From: a phage | Direction: 5' to 3' (one strand) | DNA length: 64,000 nucleotides | Assembly (NCBI GenBank): GCA_014913405.1 | Contig: GCA_014913405.1_3931.1 | In this document: positions 24,275 to 24,523 of the stretch, in pieces | Position numbering within the stretch: the stretch's first letter is position 1 | How the letters are laid out: each line of letters begins with the position of its first letter | Notes under the pieces: generated by a model | What the model saw: the letters and a program-made list of their open reading frames with translations, nothing else | What the model was told of the DNA's origin: nothing | Databases searched by the model: none | Position numbers and translations under genes: made by a program

Positions 24275-24292
24275 CCAATTTCAATAAAGTTG

Positions 24293-24321
24293 TTGACATT
24301 GAGATGTGACTACTTTATAGT
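24293..24321 (+). promoter_or_regulatory. Sigma70 promoter inside tRNA array (TTGACA-17-TATAGT)
   Basis: Canonical hexamers and spacing. Confidence 0.6.
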
Positions 24322-24523
24322 AACCTTAGTTTTCGTTGCGTAGCGTCTATTTTGCAAATTTAAAATAAATGCAAACGACAATGTTTTTCTGGCAGTAGCT
24401 TGATAGGCTAAACACCAGTGAGGTCTTCCAATCCCTCATCAAAGAATTTGGCGTACTCGCCCACGGTATGATTAATAAGGTGGGCATCTTTAAGGGCTTT
24501 CTAAGAGAGTCTTTAAAGATAAT

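Follow-up and report, generated by a model that had tools for sequence, protein, structure and literature searches.

Trans-translation, carried out by tmRNA (transfer-messenger RNA, the product of ssrA) together with SmpB, is the main pathway of ribosome rescue and quality control in bacteria, and several phages depend on it. In the two-piece tmRNAs known to date, the coding piece starts with the 5′ strand of the acceptor stem and pairs with its own acceptor piece. The recorded phage tmRNAs are those of the mycobacteriophage Bxz1 group, Bacillus phage G and DS6A, the last with the tRNA-like domain only, and a molecule similar to the DS6A form inhibits the host tmRNA (PMC4131195, PMC11915505). 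The tmRNA database pipelines begin from the tRNA-like domain and drop truncated matches, and the papers describing these databases contain no enterobacterial phage and no form made of the tag template only (PMC4131195, PMC11915505). The present work concerns an RNA that is the mirror image of the DS6A form, a tag template alone joined to an arm antisense to ssrA, the phage relatives on record being either complete copies or the tRNA-like-only form. It was found in the tRNA array of a Felix O1-like phage (Felixounavirus), within a stretch of 64,000 nt (GenBank assembly GCA_014913405.1, contig GCA_014913405.1_3931.1; hereafter the window), whose positions 24200-24620 were identical at 100% to Escherichia typing phage 1 and several other phages.

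An earlier note, made from the letters of the window alone, had pointed to a canonical promoter, TTGACA-17-TATAGT, followed by about 200 nt with neither a tRNA nor a credible open reading frame (ORF), and had suggested a small RNA or a long structured leader. The promoter was found exactly where it had been placed, at 24293-24321, and the following 196 nt were indeed free of such genes: no tRNA was called by ARAGORN or Rfam between tRNA-Ile (24202-24277) and tRNA-Arg (24524-24600), Rfam at its gathering thresholds returned tRNAs alone in the region (24 in the array, with 26 called by ARAGORN), and the longest ORF, on the minus strand and unconserved, had 46 aa. This 196-nt stretch folded at –58.8 kcal/mol (z = –4.1), a stability reached by none of 200 shuffled sequences. 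The comparison with related phages that the note had proposed revealed helices that covary and, in place of the poor conservation that would have told against the idea, very strong conservation across unrelated phage families. Each of its two suggestions was right in part, as the segment corresponds to a conserved, covarying RNA that is probably co-transcribed with tRNA-Arg; the small-RNA idea stood, and what had gone unseen was the nature of the RNA, a tmRNA-like tag template with an anti-ssrA arm. As judged from the sequence, positions 24328-24523 encode a structured RNA about 196 nt long, which would be expressed from the promoter at 24293-24321. The RNA looks like a tmRNA derivative, yet it lacks what defines a tmRNA, namely a 7-bp acceptor stem with G3·U70, a T-arm and a 3′ CCA. 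The features of the locus are the following:

24293-24321, plus strand: σ70-type promoter, with TTGACA (24293-24298) and TATAGT (24316-24321) set 17 nt apart; the best match between 22 and 29 kb
24327-24351, plus strand: 5′ antisense arm, UAGUUUUCGUUGCGUAGCGUCUAUU, complementary to host ssrA nt ~82-105
24348-24367, plus strand: hairpin P1, UAUUUU/AAAAUA, from the minimum-energy fold; directly 5′ of the resume context, in place of pseudoknot 1 (PK1) of tmRNA
24365-24403, plus strand: tmRNA-like tag template, with context AUAAAU, resume codon GCA at 24371, frame 24371-24400 and stop TGA at 24401-24403
24389-24418, plus strand: stop hairpin, helix 5-like, with the stop codon in its loop; from covariation
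24419-24451, plus strand: H-type pseudoknot following the stop hairpin; from covariation
24459-24485, plus strand: hairpin P4, GCCCAC/GUGGGC, with conserved loop GGUAUGAUUAAUAAG; the stem varies by lineage and the loop core UGAUU is kept
24486-24523, plus strand: variable 3′ hairpin module of 16 bp (24486-24501 with 24505-24520) plus AAU, abutting the 5′ end of tRNA-Arg
24524-24600, plus strand: tRNA-Arg(UCU), called by ARAGORN and Rfam, located 3′ in what is probably the same transcription unit

The core of the RNA in the window, AAAAUAAAU GCAAACGAC, reads AAAAUAAAU GCA AAC GAC AAU GUU UUU CUG GCA GUA GCU UGA and encodes in 10 codons the peptide ANDNVFLAVA, the E. coli tag being ANDENYALAA. 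As in tmRNA, a resume codon without a start codon follows an A-rich context with A at –4 and opens a short frame closed by a stop; in the window sequence there was no in-frame start codon upstream of the tag, and an in-frame UAG was placed 10 codons before GCA. In 30 diverse members the A residues at –4 and –3 before the resume codon were invariant, the –4 position being the one that we take to correspond to A86 of E. coli, a determinant of resume-codon choice. The 10-codon frame and its stop were present in all 64 loci of a first set (n = 64). Counted over this and a second set (n = 112), 21 distinct peptides followed the pattern AN[DE]xx[YFV/M]L[AMQ][AV]A, with K at position 2 in one of them. 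They included ANDNVFLAVA, ANDNAFLAVA, ANDNAYLAVA, ANDNTFLAVA, ANDAQFLAVA, ANDQTFLAVA, ANDDQFLAVA, ANDEQFLAVA, AKDDQFLAVA, ANEEMYLAVA, ANEEVYLAVA and ANEEMYLAAA; others were ANDDVVLMAA, ANDDVILMAA, ANDSEVLMAA, ANEERFLMAA, ANDDLMLMAA, ANDDLMLAAA, ANDDLMLQAA and ANDNYALAAA. The resume codon specified Ala throughout, as GCA or GCT, and the stop was kept as a stop while its identity varied among TAA, TGA and TAG. Synonymous changes made up 230 of the 576 single-nucleotide codon differences in the tag frame, versus 22 of 748 and 92 of 724 in the other frames, and such codon-periodic substitution makes the tag frame look translated. On these grounds AUAAAU-GCA with its 10 codons and stop is a tmRNA-like tag template, which ribosomes may translate. 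The phage tags retain AAND, and many of them also an aromatic residue at position 7; we take these to be contacts of SspB. The last four residues, ALAA in E. coli, were LAVA, LMAA, LAAA or LQAA in the phages, and this change may alter protease recognition.

The fold around the template also follows tmRNA, in that a helix-5-like hairpin holds the stop codon in its loop and has a pseudoknot directly 3′ of it. The outer stem of the stop hairpin, CUGG/CCAG, pairs 24389-24392 with 24415-24418, and its final pair changed from G-C to A-U in 10 of 30 sequences; the inner stem, UAGCUU/AGGCUA, pairs 24396-24401 with 24405-24410. In the pseudoknot, stem S1 (UGAGG/CCUCA, 24419-24423 with 24434-24438) was also predicted independently by RNAalifold, and stem S2 (CCAA/UUGG, 24428-24431 with 24448-24451) occurred in the variants CCAG/CUGG and CCGA/UCGG. 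Covariation backed four helices, namely the outer stop-hairpin stem, part of the inner stem, S1 and S2: in two alignments 95-96% of the cells were paired, versus 28-52% when the 3′ partners were slid, and compensatory changes affected seven to nine pairs, 3 of them in S1 and 2-3 in S2. Hairpin P1 has an equivalent in other lineages, where, read by eye, CUUUG/CAAAG changes to UUAUG/CAUAA. The order of elements (hairpin, tag template, stop hairpin, pseudoknot) thus parallels PK1, tag template, helix 5 and PK2 of tmRNA, with neither a PK1 upstream nor PK3 and PK4 downstream, and with a pseudoknot devoid of sequence similarity to E. coli PK2. For the P4 loop, UGAUUAAUAA, no pairing site consistent across lineages was found in tmRNA.

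Similarity to the message half of tmRNA was detected in both directions. In a permissive Rfam search the tmRNA model RF00023 aligned to 24335-24523 over model positions 56-294, with local E-values of 2e-4 to 6e-4 and a score of 15.7 bits, under the gathering score of 47. Conversely, a model built from phage sequences only and covering tag template, stop hairpin and S1 (R1), which scored 103 bits in the window with a single copy, had the ssrA tag template as its top match in ~65 of 100 bacterial loci, E. coli K-12 among them, at 17-25 bits. When E. coli genomes were searched by blastn with the window RNA as query, prophage and plasmid copies were returned and not ssrA itself, so that the likeness is visible with covariance models only.

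The second half of the argument is the 5′ arm, whose seed, GUUUUCGU (DNA GTTTTCGT), occupies 24329-24336. Read as its reverse complement, this seed agrees exactly with ACGAAAAC of the E. coli K-12 ssrA template GCA AAC GAC GAA AAC UAC, and the host region covered by the arm comprises the sequence upstream of the resume codon, the resume codon itself and tag codons 1-6. Every one of the 64 first-set loci contained the seed GTTTTCGT; in the second set GTTTTCG was intact in 110 of 112 loci and had one mismatch in the remaining two. Past the seed the arms are lineage-specific, yet all match one host stretch, ssrA nt ~82-105 (“T1-like” is here a working label for 45-60 kb contigs and phages with shared features, not a checked taxonomy):

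Felixounavirus (window): UAGUUUUCGUUG, then GCG.UCUAUU
Kolesnikvirus: CGUAGUUUUCGUUG
Many lineages: UAGUUUUCGU-(GA/AA)-GCGACU
T1-like: AGUUUUCGUC-CAA-CGUUAGCGACU, with 19 of 20 host nucleotides paired
SSU5-like: GUUUUCGUUG-AGAC-GCGACUGUU

The predicted duplex of the window arm had an energy of –23.0 kcal/mol with the host template versus –12.1 with its own phage template, the means for the arms being –21.3 and –11.7 kcal/mol. When the post-seed part alone was shuffled, the observed energy was reached in 0.2-39% of trials. For five of the six lineages tested, the best site of the arm within tmRNA was the tag template. In a joint test over 34-nt windows, drawn from 0.83 Mb of DNA at 120 bacterial loci, four divergent arms jointly reached –20 kcal/mol or lower in 97 of 98,158 windows, and 96 of these 97 overlapped the ssrA tag template. 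Moreover, the whole window RNA cofolded with tmRNA nt 61-135 at –81.1 kcal/mol versus –70.3 for the two separately, with contact via the arm, and the target is mostly in a region of tmRNA predicted to be unpaired. No conserved cis partner of the seed was found between –500 and +800 nt in 162 loci. The complementarity of the arm is, by these comparisons, specific to the ssrA tag template, with which it would pair in vivo.

Of 120 species of gamma- and beta-proteobacteria, ~110 had the identical host target, UAGUCGCAAACGACGAAAACUACGC, Aeromonas, Serratia, Pectobacterium and Pantoea being among them, and this invariance matches that of the seed. The ssrA template UAGUC GCAAACGACGAAAACUACGC was the same in ~110 of the 120 species (loci L065-L184) although the search pattern permitted all synonymous variants, which points to an RNA-level constraint beyond the encoded peptide. 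In two loci, from Agtrevirus AG3 (L063) and the unclassified Salmonella phage PMBT18 (L064), the arm carried a tandem seed copy, GGUUUUCGUUUUCGUUG, and in two related loci (L003, L062) a degenerate second copy, GGUUUUCGUUCUCGUUG, was observed.

The promoter agrees with the consensus at 11 of 12 positions and is the top σ70-type site between 22 and 29 kb. Promoter-like sites in that interval numbered 17, versus 16.7 expected from shuffles, and in the absence of an excess the consensus match is by itself weak evidence. What makes the site at 24293-24321 more than chance is its recurring position: in five lineages (Felixounavirus, Kolesnikvirus, SSU5-like plasmid, C1 and pIS4-A) promoters end 6-12 nt before the conserved GUUUUCG. 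These positions would put the arm at or near the RNA 5′ end in the five lineages, with the RNA starting 0-5 nt before the seed; for the window the predicted transcription start is ~24327-24329. The Felix O1 genome paper lists a promoter with this motif, P45 TTGACA(17)TATAGT, and names no RNA gene (PMC3185647); P45 is possibly the homologous site. No intrinsic terminator precedes tRNA-Arg in the window copy, and the 3′ hairpin module is not one because it has no U-tract; RNA and tRNA-Arg are therefore probably co-transcribed. The 3′ end of the RNA would probably be generated by an RNase P cut at 24523/24524, the 5′ end of tRNA-Arg.

The element is a member of a large, so far unannotated RNA family present in at least eight unrelated phage groups. 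With the 246-nt spacer as query, blastn gave matches in 596 of 50,697 phage records, the central 95-125 nt being 71-87% identical in unrelated phages, and the annotation under the matches in the listed records consisted of no feature or of short hypothetical ORFs alone. Carriers were Felix O1-like phages, Kolesnikvirus (Erwinia), Ackermannviridae (Agtrevirus and Taipeivirus), T1-like and N4-like phages, Aeromonas phages, SSU5-like phage-plasmids and lambdoid prophages, in addition to PMBT18, which has 157 kb. Other carriers fetched were a 60-kb Klebsiella phage, the N4-like phages Pollock and St11Ph5, Deseoctovirus C1 and Aeromonas phage pIS4-A. Pattern scans of IMG/VR returned 49 loci and then at least 120. 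Among complete E. coli genomes, 347 of 5,426 carried the element by blastn, in 247 plasmid places (~110-kb phage-plasmids such as p09EL50) and 105 chromosomal places; both chromosomal places inspected were lambdoid prophages, in which the antiterminator gene Q and the holin gene flank the element. The RNA is without a family in Rfam 15, and neither a phage tag-template-only form nor an anti-ssrA RNA was found described in the tmRNA database papers or the other literature searched.

Felixounavirus relatives differed by entire modules precisely at the borders of the conserved core. For example, two of them (L017, L024) had an insertion of ~90 nt between the –10 box and the seed, and in five (L026, L033, L035, L036, L048) the 3′ hairpin module was exchanged for another, which carried CCCUUAUGGGGCUUGGCUUAAAUGCA, a motif also present in upstream modules of the unrelated loci L044 and L055. 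One hairpin module, whose loop region reads UUCUUACGAG or UUCUAAGAGAG, recurred in the window at 23641-23673 (after tRNA-Asp) and at 24486-24520, and at ~1655-1697 of the Kolesnikvirus locus L004; within the tRNA array it may serve in processing or mark a boundary. In T1-like and lambdoid loci (e.g. L016, L011, L050, L053, L055, L056) the tag RNA was located inside non-coding units of 600-900 nt, made of hairpin modules closed by GGUAAGAGCAUU/CAGUGCUCUUUCC whose helices covary among loci, with a terminator on either side.

Nothing equivalent to the tRNA-like domain was found joined to the tag RNA. Scanned with ARAGORN, the window and ~28 related loci of phages, plasmids and prophages yielded no tmRNA, no acceptor stem with G3·U70 was seen by eye near any member, and in the five lineages with a promoter 6-12 nt before GUUUUCG an acceptor strand would not fit. 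When the tRNA region of the window was searched for T-arms and for the tmRNA 5′ motif, just a remnant and a probable tRNA-Trp came up. The remnant, at 23811-23843 on the plus strand, is an orphan T-arm with an acceptor 3′ strand and no CCA (GAGGGUUCGAUUCCUUCACUCGGCAG; Rfam partial tRNA, 18.8 bits); it resembles the 3′ end of a Kolesnikvirus tRNA-like RNA with the 5′ half missing and is probably decayed. An 11-nt match to tmRNA nt 3-13 at ~34011 had no T-arm downstream and was taken as chance.

The Kolesnikvirus tRNA-like RNA is an unannotated molecule of 168 nt, with the shape of a tRNA-like domain and located directly 5′ of the tag-RNA promoter (L004 1294-1461; also L019 and L038), which was missed by ARAGORN and Rfam. 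It presented a 7-bp acceptor stem, GGGUGAU/AUCACUC, with discriminator G and CCA, the motif UGAUUCUG identical to E. coli tmRNA nt 6-13, a long helix replacing the D and anticodon arms, a T-arm, and a wobble G2·U71 instead of G3·U70. T1-like and lambdoid loci contained downstream tRNA-like RNAs of the form UGUGGUG...CACCACA-G/A-CCA, mostly uncalled by ARAGORN, and in St11Ph5 an annotated tRNA-Ala(cgc) (L059 475-546), ~110 nt upstream of the element, showed G5·U68 and U3-A70, not G3·U70.

The probable tRNA-Trp(CCA) of the window, at 24743-24825 on the plus strand, was missed by ARAGORN and given by Rfam as tRNA-Sec alone (23 bits). It had an acceptor stem AUGGGAC/GUCCCAU, G73, an encoded CCA, the anticodon loop CUCCAAA, a C31·A39 mismatch, a weak D-arm and the T-loop UUCAACU, with TTGACA upstream at 24702; no other tRNA-Trp was called in the array. 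In the same tRNA array of Salmonella phage SeKF_63 (L001 311-832), an HNH endonuclease gene is annotated over tRNA-Tyr, one sign of frequent insertions in this region.

The reading that we tentatively favour, with much doubt left, is that the RNA is a tmRNA derivative keeping the message half, which would dock on the host tmRNA, mask its template and offer its own. The arm would pair with host tmRNA nt ~82-105, hiding the resume signal (the A86 region) and tag codons 1-6. Its 3′ part would pair with the 5′ part of the host template, so that the phage RNA would exit the duplex nearest to host PK1, and the phage hairpin and AUAAAU-GCA would thereby be placed at the host resume site, just past PK1. 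Host tmRNA and SmpB would supply the alanine and the entry to stalled ribosomes, and the ribosome would resume on the phage template, leaving rescued proteins with a phage-specified tag. This docking model is the simplest that makes use of all three properties of the RNA: an arm directed at the host template, a template of its own that the arm does not recognise, and the lack of a ribosome entry of its own. It is possible, if doubtful, that the family as a whole is a portable tag-swap RNA spread over many enterobacterial and Aeromonas phages, phage-plasmids and prophages, forming with the host a hybrid two-piece tmRNA in which the phage chooses the tag. In a variant of the scheme, the arm would splint or replace a host tag template cut by an anti-phage nuclease, much as phage tRNAs do for cleaved host tRNAs.

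Several points weigh against docking and tag exchange. The steps beyond sequence analysis (expression, processing, pairing in vivo and ribosome use of the phage template) are ones that we infer. A translating ribosome is able to unwind a duplex of such size, so masking may be partial, and we know of no precedent for a tag template given in trans through base pairing. The phage tags still look like degradation tags, hydrophobic and ending in AA or VA, so a gain from swapping is not evident. The Agtrevirus arm, when tested, bound the host template weakly (–17.8 kcal/mol, top 7% of background), and in T1-like, N4-like and lambdoid members, as well as in the Felixounavirus variants with the 90-nt insertion, the arm is inside a longer transcript. 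The host target is without variation and so leaves no room for a test of phage-host covariation. A likeness of the seed to the D-loop-like motif of tmRNA, GGAUUCGAC, means that part of its conservation could reflect ancestry. Finally, the 168-nt Kolesnikvirus RNA could be ancestral to the system or a partner encoded by the phage, and some lineages may thus possess a partner of their own.

The main rival, which we consider unlikely though a serious contender, is a pure antisense inhibitor, whose arm would block tagging or trigger tmRNA cleavage while the body serves as an untranslated scaffold or as a decoy for proteins that bind tmRNA, such as SmpB, S1 or RNase R. The ssrA complementarity, specific and selected, and the missing tRNA-like domain would both be expected of such a molecule, and the DS6A form provides the precedent of a partial mimic, a similar molecule being inhibitory to tmRNA (PMC4131195, PMC11915505). 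A decoy needs no reading frame, yet there are always exactly 10 codons, the stop is retained under changing identity, the Ala codon varies synonymously only and substitutions are codon-periodic.

Less probable still is a two-piece tmRNA encoded wholly by the phage, in which this RNA would be the coding piece, a tRNA-like RNA nearby its partner, and the host tmRNA uninvolved. The 168-nt Kolesnikvirus RNA, with UGAUUCUG, a T-arm and GCCA directly upstream, and the CCA-ending RNAs downstream in T1-like and lambdoid loci would be candidate partners, and the permuted and beta-proteobacterial Rfam models gave weak matches (29.2, 18.3 and 14 bits). None of these nearby RNAs, inspected by eye, has the G3·U70 alanine identity pair, however, and no partner was found near the Pollock or Agtrevirus copies, the window having the decayed T-arm remnant only. 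The permuted-model match in the window (RF04321, 29.2 bits versus 47) was rejected, as it borrows the T-arm of the normal tRNA-Ile, itself scoring 62 bits. Unlike all known two-piece tmRNAs, the coding RNA opens with the antisense arm and not with the acceptor 5′ strand, and the complementarity of that arm to host ssrA would be left unexplained.

Slightly further down comes an ordinary small RNA of the seed type, with GUUUUCGU directed against host or phage mRNAs and the ssrA match incidental, which we hold to be improbable. Base-pairing small RNAs typically carry a conserved seed at the 5′ end or close to it, and a 10-nt seed match is expected by chance an estimated nine times or so per E. 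coli genome. Here the seed (174 of 176 loci) comes with specific target complementarity, the lineage-specific post-seed sequence matches ssrA too, the joint test leaves almost only ssrA, and the tmRNA-like body makes ssrA a non-arbitrary target; moreover, the Rho-independent terminator with a U-tail that goes with this class as its usual Hfq module is lacking before tRNA-Arg in the window copy.

It is very improbable that the RNA has no function in itself and is a mere structured leader, or a spacer for the processing, of tRNA-Arg: the two probably share a transcript, with no terminator between them, but the same core occurs in phages and prophages of very different context, closes at its own terminator in Pollock, and has a coding signature and a covarying pseudoknot. 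A small protein gene is hardly credible, although a 46-aa minus-strand ORF (24347-24487) exists, is annotated as hypothetical in some relatives, e.g. SeKF_63, and a plus-strand AUG frame (MQTTMFFWQ) overlaps the resume codon, as the former ranges from 10 to 60 aa with starts and frames that differ across lineages and the latter has 22 of 748 synonymous differences and loses its stop in Kolesnikvirus.

Taken together, the family suggests that phages tamper with ribosome rescue. It escapes finders that start from the tRNA-like domain, such as ARAGORN and the database pipelines, and lies below Rfam thresholds. If the RNA pairs with SsrA, it would represent a new viral route to block or reprogram ribosome rescue, one that would also be present in lysogens with SSU5-like phage-plasmids or lambdoid prophages. 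If the phage tag is used, a tag template can come in trans, which would bear on resume-codon choice and offer a tool for retargeting tags in vivo, and if the hybrid mechanism is true, it would be a new category of host takeover.

Compared with bacterial tmRNA (RF00023), the phage RNA shares the A-rich resume context with A at –4, Ala as the first tag codon, a 10-residue tag with an AND/ANE start and a hydrophobic close in AA or VA, and the stop in a helix-5-like loop with a pseudoknot next. It differs in having no tRNA-like domain, a hairpin for PK1, no PK3 or PK4, a length of ~196 nt versus 363, and, unlike any known tmRNA, a 5′ arm that is antisense to the tag template of the host. The two-piece tmRNAs of alpha-proteobacteria, some beta-proteobacteria and cyanobacteria (RF04321, RF01850) establish that the template need not be linked covalently to the whole tRNA-like domain; the tag region of the beta-type consensus resembles the phage one, and their order of CCA end, promoter-like spacer and coding part is also found in Kolesnikvirus. 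Unlike them, the phage RNA opens with an arm complementary to the template of another tmRNA, and their models score it far below threshold. The anti-sRNAs AgvB and AsxR, encoded by prophages of enterohaemorrhagic E. coli, are phage RNAs that pair with host non-coding RNAs, and the present family would share with them this kind of pairing as well as, in its lambdoid copies, the same late-region niche between Q and holin; here, in contrast, the target would be tmRNA, and the RNA adds a translatable template and a tmRNA-like fold. DS6A has the tRNA-like half without the tag, whereas this phage family has the tag half without the tRNA-like half, together with an antisense arm.

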